Source: Candidatus Aenigmatarchaeota archaeon (GTDB lineage: Archaea > Aenigmatarchaeota > Aenigmatarchaeia > CG10238-14 > SpSt-28). From it: a DNA stretch of 64,000 nt. The stretch is from positions 21,542 through 85,541 of the forward strand of contig JAWBAK010000002.1 in the NCBI GenBank assembly GCA_038997165.1, given 5' to 3'. The translations under genes were made by a program, and so were the position numbers. The notes under the pieces are model-generated. The model was not told the DNA's origin, ran no database searches, and saw only the letters and a list, made by a program, of their open reading frames with translations. Shown here piece by piece: positions 3,926 through 28,665 of this stretch (its first letter is position 1; every line of letters begins with the position of its first letter).

Positions 3926-4087
3926 TTAAATTATAAATCTTAATATTAAAATTAAAATACCAATAAGAACTGAAATAATTATAACTTGCTCAATTTTCAA
4001 TTTAATTTTAGATTCTGGTTCTTCTTCTAAATGAATTAAACCTCCATATCCAGCAGGCATCAAATATTTTTTGGCTTTCTTCACCAT
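3926..4087 (-). CDS. secG: Preprotein translocase subunit Sec61beta (53 aa, not in ORF track)
   Basis: Hand translation MVKKAKKYLMPAGYGGLIHLEEEPESKIKLKIEQVIIISVLIGILILILRFII: the MP..GGLI...E.SKIKL motif plus one TM helix. Confidence 0.85.
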   Translation of the reverse strand: MVKKAKKYLMPAGYGGLIHLEEEPESKIKLKIEQVIIISVLIGILILILRFII

Positions 4088-4112
4088 AATAAAATTAAGA
4101 GAATATCTTTAT

Positions 4113-5390
4113 ATGGAAATAGTAAAAAATTATTATTCTAATGAAAAGATATTAGAATTTTTAGTAGAGTTTGCAAAAGATAGAGAAGTTGTTGCCGTAT
4201 ATAAAGATGGAAAATATGGAAAGAGACCAGATATATTACAATATCCAGCAGATATTATTTCAAAAGTAGAAGAAGGTGCTATTGCCTTTCATTGTACAGC
4301 AGAAAAATGGAAAAACCCAATGCAATTAAGAGCAGGAATGATAAAAAAAGATTACGATGAATTAAGATTATCATGGGACTTAGTCATAGATATAGATATT
4401 AAAGATTTTGAAATAGCAAAATTAGCTACAAAGGTAATAGTGGAATTTTTAAAATCATATCAAATAAAAAATTTATTAGTTAAATTTACTGGCGGAGATA
4501 GTTTTCATATAATTATCCCTTCTCAAAGTTTTCCAGAAAATTTTAATAAATCTCCAATTTCGTTACAATATGAAGAATTGAGTAGAAAAATTATAGAATT
4601 TATTAAACAATCTACAGAAGAAGAACTAAGAAATCTTATTATTGAATTTTTTAATCCTAAGGAGCTATCTCAAAAACTTAATAAATCTTTGGATGAACTT
4701 TTTGAAAATAATGTTTTAAAACCATTTAAATTTATAAATATAGATGTTTTTGGAGTTAGACATTTATTTAGAATGCCATATTCTTTACATGAAAAAACTT
4801 TATTAGTTAGTCTACCAATAAATCCAAAAGAAATAATGAGTTTTAAAAAAAGTGATGCACATCCAGAAAAAGTTATATTTGATGAAAAATTAGTTAGATT
4901 TGAATATAAAAACGATGCAATTTATTTATTAATAGAAGCTATAGAAAGAGTAAAAATAGAAGTAGAAAAAGAAATAGAAGAATTAAAAGAAAAAGTTGAA
5001 GTTGGAAAAAAAAGAAAAATTCCTTTTGAATATTTTCCACCATGCATAAAAACAATTCTTAACGGTTTAGAAGATGGAAGAAATAGAAGCATCTTTGTAT
5101 TAATAACTTTTTTAAGAAATGTAGGTTATTCTTGGGAAGAAATAGAAAAAATATTGCACGAATGGAATGAAAAAAATAGACCTCCATTAAGAGAAGGAAT
5201 AATAAGAACTCAATTTAGATGGCATGTGAGACAAGAAAGAAATTTATTAAGTCCTAATTGTGATCATCCAGTTTTCTATAAAGATTATGGCGTCTGTAAG
5301 CCCGATGAATTTTGTAAGGAAATAAAAAATCCCTTATCTTATGCTTTAAAAAAATTCTTAAAAGATAAAAAAATTAAAAAAGAAGAATAA
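4113..5390 (+). CDS. priSL: Fused DNA primase PriS-PriL (DPANN type)
   Basis: AEP motifs DLVIDID, FTGGDSFH and RMPYSLH, then a C-terminal FPPCI...C...C...C PriL Fe-S-like domain. ATG 4113 chosen because TTG 4071 overlaps secG. Confidence 0.9.
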   Translation: MEIVKNYYSNEKILEFLVEFAKDREVVAVYKDGKYGKRPDILQYPADIISKVEEGAIAFHCTAEKWKNPMQLRAGMIKKDYDELRLSWDLVIDIDIKDFEIAKLATKVIVEFLKSYQIKNLLVKFTGGDSFHIIIPSQSFPENFNKSPISLQYEELSRKIIEFIKQSTEEELRNLIIEFFNPKELSQKLNKSLDELFENNVLKPFKFINIDVFGVRHLFRMPYSLHEKTLLVSLPINPKEIMSFKKSDAHPEKVIFDEKLVRFEYKNDAIYLLIEAIERVKIEVEKEIEELKEKVEVGKKRKIPFEYFPPCIKTILNGLEDGRNRSIFVLITFLRNVGYSWEEIEKILHEWNEKNRPPLREGIIRTQFRWHVRQERNLLSPNCDHPVFYKDYGVCKPDEFCKEIKNPLSYALKKFLKDKKIKKEE

Positions 5391-5999: not shown

Positions 6000-6203
6000 A
6001 TGTCGATAGAAGAGATTAAGCAAAAAATAATAGAAATTTTAAAAGTAAAAAATATAATAAGTAAAAAAGAGCTTTTAAACATAATAGAAAATAAAGAAGA
6101 TGTAGAAAAAGCAATTTATGAATTACTATCGAATAATATAATTTTTGAAATTAATATTTTAGGTGGAAATTATTATGGCCTTAAAAATATTAAAAATAAA
6201 TAA
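6000..6203 (+). CDS. Small winged-helix-like protein
   Basis: 67 aa; three helices, then LLSNNIIFE and a beta wing. Confidence 0.5.
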   Translation: MSIEEIKQKIIEILKVKNIISKKELLNIIENKEDVEKAIYELLSNNIIFEINILGGNYYGLKNIKNK

Positions 6204-6363: not shown

Positions 6364-6486
6364 GTTCTAAGATTTAATTAACTACTTTTAGATAGTTAAT
6401 AAGCCTAATATAATATATTTATTTAGATAAAAGGAAGATAAGAATATTAAAAAATCTATATATCCACTTGGCGCATTTTTATAAAT

Positions 6487-6792
6487 ATGGAGGAAAAAAG
6501 AGAAGAGAAAAAAAGGTCAGACGAATTAGAAAATGTGTTGAAAATACTAATTGTTTTAAAAAAACTAAACGGTTGGATATGGATTAGAGAAATAGCAAGA
6601 AGAGTAAATTTACACCATAAGACAGTTTCTCGCATTTTAGATAAATATTTTAGACCATTCATAGAGGAGCAAAGAATTTTACCTTTTAGAGCTAGACTAG
6701 TGAGATTAAAAGATAATATTGATGAAGAAAAATTTATAGCTTTTTGGAAAATAAAAAAGTTGCAGGAAATATATGAAAAAAGATTTAAATAA
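6487..6792 (+). CDS. Winged-HTH DNA-binding protein
   Basis: WIWIREIARRVNLHHKTVSRILDKY HTH motif. Confidence 0.75.
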   Translation: MEEKREEKKRSDELENVLKILIVLKKLNGWIWIREIARRVNLHHKTVSRILDKYFRPFIEEQRILPFRARLVRLKDNIDEEKFIAFWKIKKLQEIYEKRFK

Positions 6793-6794
6793 TT

Positions 6795-7358
6795 ATGAGT
6801 TTAATTGAGAAGTTTAAAAAGTTTTTTCTTAGAAAGAAAAGTTCCCTAGAAGCTCTTCAACAAAGCGACGAAACTCTAGAAAAAAAGACAAATATAGAAG
6901 AAAATATTTTAGAAAGAAATAATGAATTAGGTTTGATAGATGAAAAATTCTTATATGGATATATTTTAAAAACTCTAAAATCTATTGAAGAAAGTTTAAA
7001 GAGAATAGAGTACAACATGGTAACAAAAGATTGGGCAGCTTTAAATTTATCAGAAAAGAAGGACATTGAAAATTTGTTAAACAAATTAGACGAAAAAATA
7101 GAGAACATAAAATTTATTTTACCATCTGCTTCAAGCGCTTTAAGCAGATCGAGCAGATCAAGTGAAATTATTAAGAAAGCCGTTGAAATAATAAGGGAAA
7201 GAAAAGAAATAAGTTATGAGGATTTAGCTAGGGAATTAGGAATTTCAAATAGTTATTTGAGAGCAATAGCTAGTTTGATAGAGATGAATAATCCAAATAT
7301 AAAAAGAAATATAAGAGATAAGAAAGGATATTTTATATACTTTGAAAAAATAGATTAG
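6795..7358 (+). CDS. Coiled-coil protein with a C-terminal winged-HTH
   Basis: ISYEDLARELGISNSYLRAIASL HTH plus wing, preceded by a coiled coil and an S/R linker. Confidence 0.7.
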   Translation: MSLIEKFKKFFLRKKSSLEALQQSDETLEKKTNIEENILERNNELGLIDEKFLYGYILKTLKSIEESLKRIEYNMVTKDWAALNLSEKKDIENLLNKLDEKIENIKFILPSASSALSRSSRSSEIIKKAVEIIRERKEISYEDLARELGISNSYLRAIASLIEMNNPNIKRNIRDKKGYFIYFEKID

Positions 7359-7625
7359 TAAAATACTTTTAGAATTGCTTAAGCGCTTAAGCAGTTCAAG
7401 CATGTTGACTAGTTACTTTTAAAAATTTAAAAATTAATATATGGTTCGTAAGCCTACGATATTATCTAAATTAATCATGAAATTCTTTAATTTATAATTA
7501 AATGTTTTAATTCTTCAAATAGAAATGCTTTAACTGCTTGAAGCGCTTGAAGCGCTTATAAGCATAAGCAGCAAAAGAAATTTTGAAATATTTCTTCTGC
7601 TTAAGCGCTTAAGCAGATCAAGCAG
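7126..7625. repeat. Palindromic (C)TGCTT-AAGCGCTT-AAGCAG repeat family, 4 clusters
   Basis: Clusters at 7126-7162 (in gene), 7375-7404, 7525-7572 (inverted) and 7596-7625. Perfect palindromes at 7376-7393 and 7596-7617. Confidence 0.9.
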
Positions 7626-7710
7626 TTAATATATTGACAAAATTAAATATAATATCACTAAAAAATAAAATATTTTATTTCTAAATGATAATTATATAAC
7701 TTTTAGAAAT

Positions 7711-8359
7711 TCTCACATTTTATATTATACTTTCATTTATATTTTATAGTTAGTTTTATATCGAGAACTATCTCACATTTATTTTAATATTTGTAAAAGC
7801 TCTTTTTAAACAATTTAGAAGAATTATCTCTCACGTTTATAATGAGAAACTAAACAAATTTAAAATTTAGATTTTTAAGTTCTAAATAGTATTAAACAAA
7901 TTTTATTATTCTATAGTGGCAAACTATCTTTAGTCTTCTCTCACATTTTACAGAAAAATAACTAGTAACTATTTTTAAATAACTATTATTAAACAAATTA
8001 CTTATTCATAGATAGTACTAGAAAAGTCAATTTTTTATCATTATTTATGAATTTAAAACATAAAGTAAAAAATTATATACTCAATTATATATAATTTTTT
8101 GTATAAATTATTAAAAGGTACTAAATAATTTACTTAAAAAATAGTGAAAATATTATAAAAAACAGCATTCCATTATTATTATTCTTCTATAGATTTATTT
8201 AAATTATTTTTAATTTTTTTATATGTATAAACTTTTTATATTTTAAACTTAACTTTAAATCTCTTTAAATATAGCTTTATCGTAAAAATATACCTTTAAA
8301 AATTTATAGCTGGCTCTGTAGACCAGTTATAAATTTTTAGAATTTAAAAAAATGTGAGA
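7711..8359. repeat. TCTCACATTT motif family: 4 direct and 1 inverted copy
   Basis: Copies start at 7711, 7771, 7829 (one mismatch) and 7939; reverse complement AAATGTGAGA at 8350-8359. Confidence 0.85.
8297..8339. repeat. Inverted repeat / hairpin with 17-bp arms and 9-nt loop
   Basis: TAAAAATTTATAGCTGG-ctctgtaga-CCAGTTATAAATTTTTA, one G-T mismatch. Confidence 0.85.
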
Positions 8360-8794
8360 GTTTTTAATTTATTTATTTACTTAATAGTAATTGTTAATAG
8401 ATTTAAAGAATAAATAAAAAATATTCTGAAAATTAGTGAACAAACTTTTTTCTAATATTTGTTAAAATGTTTATTATCCAGATGGCGCATCTATAAGATT
8501 CGAGAATTTTATTTTTTATGTCTTTTGTTTTTTCGAAAATAATAAATATCTTAAAAGATAAAAGATTATAACTATACAAAACAAAAATATATGCTTATTT
8601 CTAAGAAGGAACTTAATAAAAAATTGAAATTAAAAATTTCAAAGTACAAAAATCAGAAATTATATTGCAAACTATCCTTTTTATAAGAATTGCGATATAA
8701 AAGTAAAAAATATTACTAATACTTAAATGTCATATTGGTAAGAGTGAAAAATTAAAAAAAGAAATATATGAAAGATATTTGGTACTTCTTTCTA

Positions 8795-9610
8795 CTAGTA
8801 TCTATAGTTTTGATAAATCTGTTTAACTCTATTTTCTAGTTCATGCACCAAATCTTTTACTGTTCTAGAAGAGAGTAATACTTTTTCTATCTTTTTAAAT
8901 TCTTTATTTATATCATATGATTTTTCTATACACTCTAAAATATCTTTTACAATATCAATAGAGGGTATGTTTTTTGCATTTAAGTTTTCTGATATTTTTA
9001 TTGTACCTAACCAAGCATATATTTCACTTAAATTTCTGAAATTCTCTGCTTTCTCTTGAATGCTTCTAAAGTGTAAAATAAAGCTTATAAAATTCAAAAT
9101 AATAGTAATGATTGTAAAAATTGAATATGTTTCTTTACCATTTATTATTTCTTTAAATGTTTGTACAAGGTTGTTTAAACTATTTTCATAATTTTTCAAA
9201 GCGTTTTTAATTTCGTTTGATGCTAATGAATTCAAAATATACTTTGCGTGCATTAGTTCGTGAGGTAATGTTTCAACATCTTTACCATCGATCTTTACAT
9301 AATCCTTTATTATAAGAATAATTGATCCTTCTTTATATAATAGTGGGATTGTTATACCACCCAATTGTATAGAGTTATAAATTAATTCTGATATTATTAG
9401 ATTTGCTCTATAAACTTCTGTATTTTTAGTAACGTTCTCATCTAGATCAATACCTTTACTAGCAAGTTTATTTACGGCATTTTTTACTTCCTCTTTTGAA
9501 ACTCTCTCAACCAAACCTATTTTTTCTGCTTTTTCAAATAGATCTTCTATTAAATCTTTATTTTCTTTTCTTATATGGTTTGCATGTATTGTAGGTATAT
9601 TATCATTCAT
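8795..9610 (-). CDS. HExxH metallopeptidase-like protein with an internal hydrophobic helix
   Basis: TLPHELMHAKY...TM-like segment...SEIYAW. Confidence 0.55.
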   Translation of the reverse strand: MNDNIPTIHANHIRKENKDLIEDLFEKAEKIGLVERVSKEEVKNAVNKLASKGIDLDENVTKNTEVYRANLIISELIYNSIQLGGITIPLLYKEGSIILIIKDYVKIDGKDVETLPHELMHAKYILNSLASNEIKNALKNYENSLNNLVQTFKEIINGKETYSIFTIITIILNFISFILHFRSIQEKAENFRNLSEIYAWLGTIKISENLNAKNIPSIDIVKDILECIEKSYDINKEFKKIEKVLLSSRTVKDLVHELENRVKQIYQNYRY

Positions 9611-24860: not shown

Positions 24861-25901
24861 TTATAAAATAAGTTTTGCAACAAATTTACTTCCTTTTATT
24901 CCATCTACTCTTTTTATTTCTATTATATTTTTGTTTACTAAATCTTTTAGTAAATAGTTAAACATTCTTCTTTTAATATTAAATTTTTTGTTTATTATTT
25001 CAAAAAGCTCTGTAGTTGTCATTTCTTTTTCTTTTAATAAATTAATTATTTCTTTTTGTCTTTCATCATAAATTAACTTAATTTTTTCATCCAAAGTATC
25101 AATTTTTTTCTTTTCAAAATTTTTGATTACTTCTTTAATTATTTCAACACTTAATTTATTTTCATTTTTATCTAATAAAATTTCTAGTGCTTTTTTTAAA
25201 ACTTTCAAAATTATTCTTACATCACTATTGTAATTATAAGCTAGGTTTGCAATTAGAGTTATTGCAGCTTTATCATAATTATTTTGAAAAATTAATTTTA
25301 CTCTCTCTTCAGCAATTGTTTTAAGCTGTTCAAAAGTATATTGTTTAAATTCTAATTCATCAAAATTTAATGAACTTAAAACTCTTTGATCTAAATTTAA
25401 AATAAAATCTTTATTATTTGAAATTAAAATCAAATAAGGATAATAATTATATAAAAAGGTCATTCTTGAAAAAATATAAAGAATTTCATTTATATCTTTA
25501 ACTTTATCTATTTCATCTATACATATTACAATCTTTAAATTTGAATTTTTTAAATAATTGACAATTCTTTCTAATATTTCTTCTTTTGAAACACCCCTTA
25601 TTTCTAAAATTTTTAATTCTTCTGCGATTTTAGATAATAATAGCGATGAAGTATTATAAACGAAAGCATTAAGATAAACATATTTAACTCCTAATATTTG
25701 AAAATTTTTAAAAACATATTTAACGCTAGCTGTTTTTCCAAGACCACTACTTCCAAAAATTAAAAGATAAGTTGGTTTAAAATTTTTGGAATATTTTTCA
25801 ATCTTATCTTTAATAAAGAGAATTTGAGATTCTCTAAATGGTAATTTTTCTGGGATATAATTTTCATCTAAAAAATCAAAGATATTTTCTACAGCGCTCA
25901 T
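24861..25901 (-). CDS. cdc6: Orc1/Cdc6 replication initiator
   Basis: YIPEKLPFRE, GSSGLGKT, IDEID, RVLSSL, C-terminal wHTH. Confidence 0.9.
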   Translation of the reverse strand: MSAVENIFDFLDENYIPEKLPFRESQILFIKDKIEKYSKNFKPTYLLIFGSSGLGKTASVKYVFKNFQILGVKYVYLNAFVYNTSSLLLSKIAEELKILEIRGVSKEEILERIVNYLKNSNLKIVICIDEIDKVKDINEILYIFSRMTFLYNYYPYLILISNNKDFILNLDQRVLSSLNFDELEFKQYTFEQLKTIAEERVKLIFQNNYDKAAITLIANLAYNYNSDVRIILKVLKKALEILLDKNENKLSVEIIKEVIKNFEKKKIDTLDEKIKLIYDERQKEIINLLKEKEMTTTELFEIINKKFNIKRRMFNYLLKDLVNKNIIEIKRVDGIKGSKFVAKLIL

Positions 25902-27474: not shown

Positions 27475-28665
27475 TTAAATTTTTATTAAATGTAATTTTT
27501 GAATGTTATTATCTTTTATTAATACTGGTACTTCATTTAATGTTAAGTCAGAAAATGATTCGCGCATTCCAAATAATATTTTTTCTAAGTCACTTACTTG
27601 AGAAGAAGAAATTGTAACATAAGTAAGATTTGCGGGCTCAGAAATTTTAATATTTTTTAAATTACAATTTAGTAGATTTGCTCCAGAAAGATTAGCACCG
27701 GAAAGATTTGCTCCAGAAAGATCAGCACCTTCTAGGTTAGCTCTTAAAAGATTTGCTCCAGAAAGATCTGCATTTCTTAAATTGGCTTTATAAATATCTG
27801 CTTCGGTTAAATTTGCTTTTGGGAAATTTGCTCCACGTAATACTGCATATTTTAAATTGGTTTGTGATAAATCTGAGCCAGAAAAATCTGCTTCTGATGC
27901 TATACTAGTACTAAGAATTGCTTTATGTAAATTCGATTCTAAAAATTTTGCTTCTAAAAGAATTGAATTATAAAGACTTGCCCCTTGTAAATTAGTATTT
28001 GTAAAAGATGCATTTTTTAAATTAGAATAATCAAGATATGCTTCTCTTAGTTCACAATCAATAAACTTTGCTTTTTCAAAATTCCCTTCAGAAATATCTG
28101 CTCTTTGGAAACCACATTTAGAAAAAGTAGCATTTTCAGCATCTATATGTGAAAAATTTCCTTCGTTAAATAATGTATTTATAGCAGTTACGTTTCTTAA
28201 TGTTGAATATTGAGAATTCGAATTTTTAAAAATACATTCTAAAAATGTTGAATTAGTAAAATTTGTATAAGGACAATATGAACCAAAAAAAGATACATTT
28301 GAAAATTTACATTCTTTAAAATTTGAACCAGAAAGATCTGTAAAGGAAAAATCTACTTTATCAAATTTTGAATAATTAAAATTTCCTCGAGAAATAACAG
28401 CTCTTGTAAAATCTACATTTTCTGCTTGTAAATTTGGTAAAGAAAGATTTGGCATTATAACTCCAATAAATAAAGAATCTCTAATAATAGTTGGTTCACA
28501 GGAAAACCTATTTTTCTTTTGTTCTTCAATAAATTTTTTATATTTTTCATATCTACTTAAATCATCTTCTTTCACTCTTATATTTCTTAATTCTTTTGAA
28601 TGGTATAATCTTTCTATAAAATTCTCTCCATTAATTTTTTGATATTTATTTTTTGTACTTTCCAT
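27475..28665 (-). CDS. Pentapeptide repeat protein
   Basis: Long run of A(D/N)LxG repeats (ADLSGANLSGANLSG). Confidence 0.92.
   Translation of the reverse strand: MESTKNKYQKINGENFIERLYHSKELRNIRVKEDDLSRYEKYKKFIEEQKKNRFSCEPTIIRDSLFIGVIMPNLSLPNLQAENVDFTRAVISRGNFNYSKFDKVDFSFTDLSGSNFKECKFSNVSFFGSYCPYTNFTNSTFLECIFKNSNSQYSTLRNVTAINTLFNEGNFSHIDAENATFSKCGFQRADISEGNFEKAKFIDCELREAYLDYSNLKNASFTNTNLQGASLYNSILLEAKFLESNLHKAILSTSIASEADFSGSDLSQTNLKYAVLRGANFPKANLTEADIYKANLRNADLSGANLLRANLEGADLSGANLSGANLSGANLLNCNLKNIKISEPANLTYVTISSSQVSDLEKILFGMRESFSDLTLNEVPVLIKDNNIQKLHLIKI

Follow-up and report, generated by a model that had tools for sequence, protein, structure and literature searches.

In a 64,000-nucleotide stretch of DNA from a Candidatus Aenigmatarchaeota archaeon (the window, G000:C2:21542-85541; positions below are those of the window unless a contig is named), two small genes, ORF1 and ORF2 (ORF is short for open reading frame), are followed by a large non-coding gap. 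We will refer to the two genes and the gap together as the module. ORF1 (6487-6792) and ORF2 (6795-7358) both lie on the plus strand, and the gap (7359-8794, 1.4 kb, 19% GC overall) extends to the 3' end of the next gene (8795-9610), which is on the minus strand. The gap thus sits between convergent gene ends, which implies that it is not a promoter region for the neighboring genes. As described below, a self-contained chromosome module acting in cis and trans is well supported by the sequence comparisons, and the module probably organizes or maintains the chromosome.

The gap stands out in a compact genome. The source genome (G000) comprises 652 kb in four contigs, with a GC content of 24% and an estimated completeness of 94.5%, and ORFs of at least 50 amino acids take up 94-95% of its two large contigs. 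An earlier note on this DNA, made from the letters alone, had picked out the gap as the only large non-coding tract, and indeed no other ORF-free stretch on its contig exceeds 500 bp, and only one in the genome is larger. That one (C1:298025-300054) contains 12 copies of one 9-mer (GATTCTAAC), has smaller gaps around it, and is probably an array of clustered regularly interspaced short palindromic repeats (CRISPR). If this tentative label is right, then the gap is the genome's largest non-CRISPR non-coding region.

Two predicted DNA-binding proteins

ORF1 encodes 101 amino acids that form a helix, a winged helix-turn-helix, and a long C-terminal helix. Its structural model is a winged helix (predicted local distance difference test score of 87) with generic fold matches to ArsR/MarR/PadR-like proteins (E about 1e-3). 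ORF2 encodes 187 amino acids, with a cationic amphipathic N-terminal helix, a low-complexity linker, a helical domain (GY..R.E..KDW, in which G55, Y56, R70, E72, and W80 are invariant), and a C-terminal winged helix. The model of ORF2 has one confident winged helix, at residues 120-185, so the earlier description of two winged-helix genes holds for ORF1 and, in ORF2, for the C terminus only. The N-terminal helix of ORF2 is conserved, while the linker varies in length. In all 16 homologues, the hydrophobic moment within the first 45 residues peaks at the N-terminal 11-mer (0.59-1.03); this peak is above the 95th percentile of shuffles in 12 of the 16, and the net charge of the 11-mer is +1 to +5.

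Neither protein reaches any cut-off in Pfam or NCBIfam, and searching the solved structures by sequence gave no match for either. The ESM Atlas gave only unnamed clusters (best score 0.87). ORF2 has no AAA+ domain, no second winged helix, and no match to a Rep family in Pfam or NCBIfam. ORF1 and ORF2 belong to families without a name in curated collections. A 67-amino-acid ORF just upstream of the module (6000-6203, plus strand) also looks, by sequence, like a small winged-helix protein, which would be the third; it has no family match.

Repeats and other cis elements

One repeat in the gap is TCTCACRTTT, which is present in 5 copies in the module (0.26 are expected in the window, and none of 100 shuffles reached 5). 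Just one other copy is found in the entire 652-kb genome. Four boxes of the form TCTCAC(A/G)TTT, all on the plus strand, begin at 7711, 7771, 7829, and 7939 (spanning 7711-7948, with spacings of 60, 58, and 110 bp), and a lone inverted box (TCTCACATTT, 8350-8359, minus strand) lies beyond an extremely AT-rich core. The four boxes are kept in three related genomes (G001, G002, and G004), and one reversed box is found at the same relative place in G002, G004, and G005.

A second motif, AAGCGCTT, occurs at 7133, 7381, 7541, 7550, and 7603 (5 copies versus 0.47 expected; not reached in any of 100 shuffles), and 11 copies are found genome-wide. Its units, together with the related AAGCAG, form three groups: at 7126-7165, with a period of about 9 bp, within the codons for the ORF2 linker; at 7376-7403, as the palindrome TGCTTAAGCGCTTAAGCA with AAGCAG-type units (from repeat and fold scans); and at 7525-7630, where the same units in both orientations form an inverted repeat of about 100 bp (-42.5 kcal/mol, z = -5.35). 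The palindrome zone that had been proposed for 7126-7625 is real, but it begins inside ORF2 (7126-7165), and its far part (7525-7630) forms that single inverted repeat of about 100 nt.

The third motif is a 15-nucleotide repeat (ATCCANNTGGCGCAT) with just two copies in the genome, at 6462-6476 and 8476-8490 (0.01 expected). We call these the proximal and distal C sites. They bracket the unit, as the earlier note had said of a 16-bp direct repeat, but they differ at two central bases and are not an exact 16-mer. The proximal C site (ATCCACTTGGCGCAT, plus strand) lies between a TATA-like sequence (CTATATAT, 6456-6463) and the start codon of ORF1 (ATG at 6487), so its position is operator-like, as judged from the sequence. 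The distal C site (ATCCAGATGGCGCAT, plus strand) is preceded by a TATA-like sequence (TTTATTAT); its position is kept in G001, G002, and G004, and it is inverted in G002 and G004.

The AT-rich core (7950-8290) has a GC content of 15-17% in 400-bp windows and a minimum of 11.3% (in the 150-bp window at 8071). Within it, an AT-only palindrome with a flanking block (8066-8113; 13-bp arms and an 8-bp spacer) shows stronger conservation within the genus than any other part of the gap, by invariant columns across 4 genomes. Past the core is a hairpin, or inverted repeat (8295-8341, plus strand; -20.7 kcal/mol, z = -5.8, versus -15.0 kcal/mol for the minus strand), followed by a T run. The hairpin is also invariant in the 4 genomes, including a retained G.T wobble. 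More broadly, in the alignment of the four gaps within the genus, the boxes, the AT-only palindrome, the hairpin, and the distal C site are invariant, and the sequence between them shows drift and indels. Motif counts, GC windows, and folding thus confirm the boxes, palindromes, AT-rich core, and hairpin that had been noticed by eye.

Conservation of the genes with their gap

We searched 41 related genomes with single-protein queries, and we found matches to ORF2 in 27 and to ORF1 in 24. We fetched 20 loci, of which 16 contain ORF2. (Five of the fetched ORF2 loci, from G001, G002, G019b, G025, and G102, end or begin inside the gap, and the contig G102:C2 stops at ORF2, so that only one flank is readable.) A profile of ORF2 identified 127 proteins among 1.84 billion representatives. 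Among 201 sampled genomes from the phylum, 49 were positive, 48 of them in one order, and ORF2 is near-universal in four families of that order. It is single-copy in every positive genome but G019. G019 has two diverged copies of the whole module (L052 = G019:C7 and L053 = G019:C18), one of them on a 2.95-kb contig. One protein query against plasmid, phage, and IMG/VR virus collections found no relative of ORF2.

The two genes stay together and stay with a gap. ORF1 lies within about 0.7 kb of ORF2 in all 16 related loci that hold ORF2, and in 15 of these 16, ORF2 directly borders on an AT-rich stretch of 0.4-1.3 kb without ORFs (the exception is G011; we required an ORF-free stretch of at least 300 bp that touches ORF2 and whose GC content is well below the locus mean). 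The same motif families recur in these gaps, so the suggestion that homologues of the two genes would also sit next to repeat-rich gaps was borne out. The module's neighbors differ between genera. We considered the 271-amino-acid gene beyond the gap as a third conserved gene, but it is not homologous to the genes at the same position in G003 or G008.

All 16 related gaps have CTCAC boxes of the same type, with 89 forward versus 7 reverse overall, and a consensus of roughly aaCTCTCAC(A/T)TT. Four of five long contigs have no spot other than the module with at least 5 same-strand CTCAC per 600 bp; on the fifth (G035:C1), there are 4 in the module and 5 at another site. Units of the AAGCGCTT type recur in G003, G005, G025, G033, and G102, while G037 has AATCGATT instead. 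TGGCGCAT recurs three times in the gap of G035 and twice in that of G025, and 9 of 21 loci have a TGGCGC core no more than about 60 bp upstream of ORF1. A separate set of boxes was found in G040: locus L162 (G040:C10:5500-10500) has seven (T/C)CTCACTTT boxes along 4 kb, all on one strand. The extended form AAC(T/C)CTCACTTT accounts for five of them, and six of the seven are in short gene spacers or gene ends, regardless of gene orientation. This locus is 125 kb from the ORF1 of G040.

In the genus of the source genome, the order is ORF1, ORF2, gap. Genomes of family f2 instead have ORF2 inverted, with the gap on its upstream side. In both groups, the elements nevertheless run from the boxes through the palindromes, ORF2, and ORF1 to the C site, and only ORF2 has flipped. 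In f2, the AAGCGCTT units lie within the 5' coding region of ORF2, where they encode ALQS-like repeats. Their spacing (10, 10, 10, 12, 10, 20, 21, and 21 bp) follows the helical repeat of DNA and is not a multiple of three, which implies that it is the DNA, and not the peptide, that is constrained. In family f5, the profile of ORF2 mostly fails.

A proposed centromere-like platform

We tentatively propose that this self-contained and nearly always single-copy module is involved in chromosome maintenance, as a centromere-like nucleoprotein platform that is possibly tethered to the membrane by ORF2, and that it is not the main replication origin; we regard this as a real possibility, short of an even chance. 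In the proposed mechanism, ORF2 would form dimers via its helical domain, and its C-terminal winged helix would bind the phased AAGCGCTT/AAGCAG units, and possibly the one-way array of CTCAC boxes, so as to coat the gap. With many copies bound, their cationic amphipathic N-terminal helices would project on flexible linkers and might attach this one site on the chromosome either to the membrane or to a partner protein, for instance an ATPase of the ParA/MinD type, and this attachment would position or segregate the chromosome. ORF1, as a small dimeric winged-helix protein, would bind TGGCGCAT sites in its own promoter, in the gap, and at the gap edge, and so set the level of the system.

Several lines of evidence support this proposal. 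First, the motifs are mostly confined to the module (5/6, 2/2, and 5/11 of their copies in the genome), so there is no regulon, as expected for a unit that maintains the chromosome in cis and trans. As in a partition cassette, iterated short repeats that are essentially unique in the replicon stand beside the gene for a putative binding protein. Second, the gene pair is conserved together with the gap, the boxes run one way, and the order of elements is kept despite the inversion of ORF2. ORF2 is also restricted to a lineage, without relatives found in the plasmid, phage, and virus collections (by the one query). Taken together, the unique sites, the single copy, the conservation of genes plus gap, and the facing gene ends argue for a maintenance module and against ordinary regulators. 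Third, the architecture of ORF2 (one winged helix, a helical domain of the dimerization type, a flexible linker, and a terminal cationic amphipathic helix) resembles that of an anchor or adaptor and not that of a replication initiator. Finally, the position of the module relative to landmarks in the nucleotide skew varies between genera, which fits a function that is independent of the place on the replichore.

An ATPase partner could act in trans. G000 has five genes for P-loop ATPases of the ParA/MinD type (253-276 amino acids), at 92.6, 103.0, 195.6, 353.6, and 406.4 kb of C1, and any of these could work with the module. Five such genes is many for a 652-kb genome.

Other observations weigh against a centromere-like platform. 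None of the 11 loci whose neighbors we scanned has a nucleoside triphosphatase (NTPase) gene beside the module, and to our knowledge, every characterized plasmid partition cassette has an adjacent NTPase gene. The 340-bp core (11-15% GC) with its inverted boxes, which is specific to one genus, looks more like an unwinding element than a centromere needs. Membrane targeting by the N-terminal helix of ORF2 is a prediction from its hydrophobic moment and from its likeness to SepF, MinD, and Noc only. The earlier note had suggested comparing the structures with known segregation and initiator proteins, but fold searches with ORF1 and ORF2 gave just generic winged-helix matches, with no detectable relation to SegB or AspA. 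In G035, the skew changes sign at the module, weakly and in the manner of an origin, although this is not significant over 60 kb. And in G022, from family f5, a diverged ORF2-like gene lies 1.3 kb from ORF1 without a large gap, and three boxes and a C site are packed into the 83-bp promoter region of ORF1. This layout implies that the large array is not universal in the order and that the sites can serve as a plain operator.

In a more novel reading, the module would be the first chromosomal kinetochore from an archaeon that can do without a dedicated NTPase gene alongside, in which an array coated by ORF2 is fastened to the membrane; or the two proteins would define a replicator that does not use origin recognition boxes (ORBs). 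Either way it would represent a new protein family and a new class of cis element. We think that this is possible but somewhat doubtful. Elements of this kind, with a repeat array and its own binding proteins, are known from plasmids, from bacterial chromosomes, and from archaeal origins. No other non-coding element in G000 is both unique and structured by repeats. With two predicted DNA-binding proteins of its own and conservation across the order, the module could reveal a new centromere or anchor system or an unconventional origin. DPANN archaea, including the Aenigmatarchaeota, have minimal genomes and are probably dependent on hosts, and a kinetochore or replicator would give a direct handle on how they inherit their chromosomes. 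We found no literature on replication origins in DPANN or Aenigmatarchaeota by title or abstract (the segregation literature was not searched), and the preprint on Ori-Finder-Arch has no occurrence of DPANN or Nanoarchaeota.

Is the module the replication origin?

The foremost alternative is that the module is the chromosomal origin, with the CTCAC boxes as divergent initiator sites around an AT-rich unwinding element. The boxes would be read by Orc1/Cdc6 in trans or by ORF2 as a lineage-specific initiator, and ORF1 and the palindromes would be regulators or accessories, like UBP and ucm at oriC1 of Sulfolobus. We consider this unlikely. The layout in genus g1, with four boxes, the 340-bp core (GC 11-15%), and one inverted box, fits the plan of archaeal origins as given in PMC12141716. 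Across g1, we found 4-7 forward boxes, the core, and one inverted box. In f2, the inverted copy is compact and an extremely AT-rich core is not evident.

The gap is the genome's largest non-CRISPR non-coding region; the intergenic DNA upstream of cdc6 is only 31 bp, so the origin is not located there; and we scanned the intergenic regions of G000 and found no rival cluster of canonical ORBs. Genes for replication proteins lie nearby: the primase gene is 1.1 kb from the module in G000 and G005, and in G008, the gene for PolB is at a distance of 3 kb. The primase is a PriS-PriL fusion in one ORF (4071-5390, plus strand), with both small- and large-subunit domains, upstream of the module, and G005 has the same arrangement.

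On the other hand, the single Orc1/Cdc6 gene (24861-25901) is about 16-17 kb from the module, as had been noted, and in all five relatives that we checked, cdc6 is 22-197 kb away or on another contig. Clusters of TTCCA-N2-3-GGAA or TTCC-N5-GAAA are absent from the module and from all intergenic regions of G000 and G039:C2, so the earlier remark that there is no canonical ORB was right for G000. The core of the ORB in Pyrococcus, TTCC...GAA, is called perfectly conserved in PMC1904270, but the boxes lack this mini-ORB core. Furthermore, ORF2 has one winged helix, without the AAA+ domain or a second winged-helix domain, and G022 has no large gap.

We rejected two candidate origin features. A strongly conserved element in the AT-rich core recalls ucm (the oligonucleotide from Sulfolobus was taken from PMC12141716): they share TTATACAAA, at 8098 on the minus strand. 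However, TTATACAAA has 35 copies in the genome, is mutated in G001 (the closest relative), and is not found in gaps outside genus g1, so we dropped it as evidence. Near cdc6, there are four copies of ATTTGCTCC, but these fall inside a pentapeptide-repeat gene (27475-28665, minus strand), whose DNA repeats mimic a motif cluster 1.6 kb from cdc6.

We also computed GC and AT skews at third codon positions, corrected for gene strand. The clearest pattern is in G039:C2 (786 kb), which shows a clean inverted V with a maximum at 298-319 kb (5-95% bootstrap interval) and a minimum at about 738 kb. The module is off these switch points: it lies at 360 kb, with a negative slope in both 60-kb flanks. As a control, the same flank test detects both the maximum (+15.7 versus -11.2 per kb) and the minimum (-14.4 versus +8.0 per kb). 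G033 and G031 show the same offset, with the module 34-48 kb from the skew maximum. These three genomes are from one genus (g15), in which the module is 35-55 kb from the maximum, and we count them as a single observation. In G039, the maximum itself has a 362-bp gap (G039:C2:301186-301547) that holds the contig's lowest-GC 300-bp window, and this is a candidate for the true switch point.

In G035, which is of a different genus, the corrected skew changes sign weakly at the module over 30-kb flanks, from -8.3 per kb on the left (confidence interval -16.1 to -1.2) to +9.4 per kb on the right (2.3 to 17.5). In G005 and G000, there is no skew signal at the module, whether raw or strand-corrected for G000, and the skew of G000 is uninterpretable because the genome is in four unordered contigs. 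The strand-corrected AT3 skew (AT skew at third positions) has one sign over all 549 kb of C1 and is flat over the 85-kb C2, and a 9184-amino-acid open frame at about 84.6-85.0 kb of C1 distorts the raw composition curves. In G005:C2, a flat zone of about 145 kb contains both the module and cdc6. Possible reasons for these flat or one-sign zones are asymmetric replication, proneness to inversion, or a methodological artefact.

Overall, the skew speaks against a main origin in one genus and weakly in favor of it in a second, and it gives no indication in the genus of the source genome. The inflection that the earlier note had looked to is thus seen weakly in G035 only. Of its suggestion of an origin or centromere with its own pair of proteins, the self-contained module is well supported by sequence, while the origin half is not, given the skew in the genus where it is clean, the lack of an ORB, and a cdc6 gene that is never adjacent in five relatives. 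An origin-like layout of boxes, AT-rich core, and inverted box is insufficient to call an origin, as relatives with clean skews switch elsewhere.

Genome G000 might have another initiator system as well. On its 10.7-kb contig (C3), two ORFs of 409 and 323 amino acids (C3:1-4249) have weak matches to AAA+ proteins of the Orc1/Cdc6 type, and this contig may be a mobile element with its own initiator.

Other explanations

ORF1 and ORF2 could instead be autoregulated transcription factors, and the gap could be a set of operators, perhaps serving as a titration sink; it might also hold promoters for short non-coding transcripts that end at the hairpin. This would account for the C site between the TATA box and the ATG of ORF1, for the proximal boxes that overlap the promoter region of ORF2 in f2, and for G022, with its three boxes and C site in an 83-bp promoter region and no large gap. 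The conserved AT palindrome could be a bidirectional TATA element, and the G.T wobble kept in the hairpin can pair only in plus-strand RNA, with a T run following the hairpin. Nevertheless, we think that a transcriptional unit is improbable. As discussed above, the motifs have no other genomic targets to speak of, and the gap in G000 faces two gene 3' ends. The sequence from the putative promoter to the hairpin is not conserved (there is a 70-bp deletion in G001), and at 19% GC the gap is unlike structured RNAs from a hot-spring organism. Of the matches to Rfam families, only those to tRNAs, all located elsewhere in the window, pass the gathering threshold, and the gap has just sub-threshold, spurious matches to microRNA hairpins. 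We considered a C/D-box small RNA in the distal element of f2, which contains GTGATGA, but the D box is absent downstream. More generally, autoregulation alone is a poor explanation for why 0.5-1.4 kb of non-coding DNA is retained across an order whose genomes are about 94-95% covered by ORFs.

Another rival, which we rate as a little less probable still, is that the module is an element of the terminus zone, either a polar fork barrier in the manner of RTP/Ter from Bacillus or an AT-rich domain boundary like the dif region of Thermococcus kodakarensis. The boxes are strictly one-way and close with one inverted copy, as a polar barrier might, and the small winged-helix protein ORF1 has a site in the promoter of its gene. 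But we found no second, opposed array of boxes on any long contig, and the boxes have no genome-wide polarity. (A KOPS-like role for the box was rejected, as it shows no such polarity genome-wide.) The module in genus g15 is displaced to one side of the skew maximum, by 35-55 kb, and falls in a stretch of reduced slope. The maximum marks the terminus by bacterial convention, from which this lineage may differ, and in G035 the relation is the opposite, of the origin type.

A XerA-like recombinase gene is about 1.2-20 kb from the module in four f2 genomes, namely G039, G033, G031, and G035 (G039:C2:340237-340716, G033:C5:184120-184575, G031:C1:40500-40976, and L050:4831-5661), while no tyrosine recombinase (PF00589) was matched in G000 or G005. 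Xer/dif sites have 11-bp inverted arms, a 6-bp spacer, and an ATAA/TTAT-type core. We considered a dif site, but the core of the Thermococcales type (ATATAA-N6-TTATAT) is not found in the module, and the spacer of the AT palindrome (8066-8113) is 8 bp instead of 6 bp. There is a precedent for a boundary in T. kodakarensis, whose AT-rich dif region of about 1.9 kb bounds SMC via a winged-helix nucleoid protein, according to PMC11840125.

A remnant of an integrated plasmid- or virus-like mini-replicon, with the 15-nucleotide direct repeats as attachment sites, would explain why the two copies of ATCCANNTGGCGCAT bracket exactly both genes and the gap, why the module is in different gene neighborhoods in different genera, and why G019 has a second copy on a 2.95-kb contig, but it is very improbable, as the copies differ at two central bases and the proximal one is a conserved site in the promoter of ORF1 in many genomes, the inversion of the distal C site in G002 and G004 fits protein-binding sites and not attachment scars, nearly all genomes of four families have the module and almost always as a single copy, one query of plasmid, phage, and viral collections found no relatives of ORF2, and a search with PF00589 found no integrase in G000. 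We leave a small chance, about the same as for a terminus element, for explanations other than these.

Comparison with known systems

The module resembles several known systems in part. RTP of Bacillus subtilis is a small dimeric winged-helix protein that is encoded beside polar Ter sites, one of which overlaps its own promoter. Similarly, the module's small winged-helix gene adjoins one-way sites and has a site in its own promoter. However, the module has 4-12 clustered one-way boxes instead of bipartite sites in two opposed groups, and the proteins have no sequence relation. The iteron initiators of the Rep_3/RepA type have two winged helices, unlike the model of ORF2, which has one.

In archaeal origins, ORBs flank an unwinding element, usually though not necessarily beside orc1/cdc6, and oriC1 of Sulfolobus also has ucm and UBP, as laid out in PMC12141716. 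The module likewise has inverted boxes around an AT-rich core and a conserved element inside that core, and there are precedents for small accessory DNA-binding proteins (UBP) and for an initiator other than Orc1 (WhiP, at oriC3). The module differs in that it is not beside cdc6, lacks the TTCC...GAA core, and is off the skew switch in the genus with clean skews, and ORF2 lacks the AAA+ domain and double winged helix of the initiators.

Boundary 1 of T. kodakarensis is an AT-rich intergenic region of about 1.9 kb between convergent genes that contains dif, is bound by TrmBL2, and stalls Smc-ScpAB (PMC11840125). The module is similar in being a large AT-rich tract between convergent genes with a winged-helix protein for which we propose an architectural role in cis. 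It differs in having discrete repeat arrays instead of general richness in A-tracts, and in lacking a dif-like core. Also, TrmBL2 is described there as a nucleoid protein that acts genome-wide, whereas the presumed binding proteins of the module are encoded beside near-unique sites.

For the proposed anchoring role of ORF2, the closest parallels are bacterial. Noc from Bacillus combines an N-terminal amphipathic helix with a DNA-binding domain and has many sites, and RacA combines a winged helix with a coiled coil and binds ram sites. ORF2 shares just the generic winged helix with these proteins, its membrane binding is a prediction, and the module is one cluster of sites per chromosome instead of tens of dispersed sites. 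But like them, ORF2 has a terminal cationic amphipathic helix, a linker, a helical region, and one winged helix, and its presumed sites are clustered, which would make binding multivalent.

Finally, centromere modules with short iterated repeats beside the gene for a binding protein include ParR-parC, TubR-tubC, AspA from pNOB8, SegB from Sulfolobus, and, in Bacillus, parS inside spo0J. Unlike partition cassettes, the module has no NTPase of the ParA, actin, or tubulin type in its operon (in 11 loci). It also has three motif families and two proteins, neither of which has a detectable relation to ParR, TubR, AspA, or SegB, and in one genus its array encloses a 340-bp core of extreme AT content. 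Like the centromere modules, however, it has both direct and inverted repeats that lie beside and partly inside the gene for a small DNA-binding protein, with a site that overlaps the promoter; its sites are near-unique in the genome; and the number of repeats varies, from 3 to 12 boxes.

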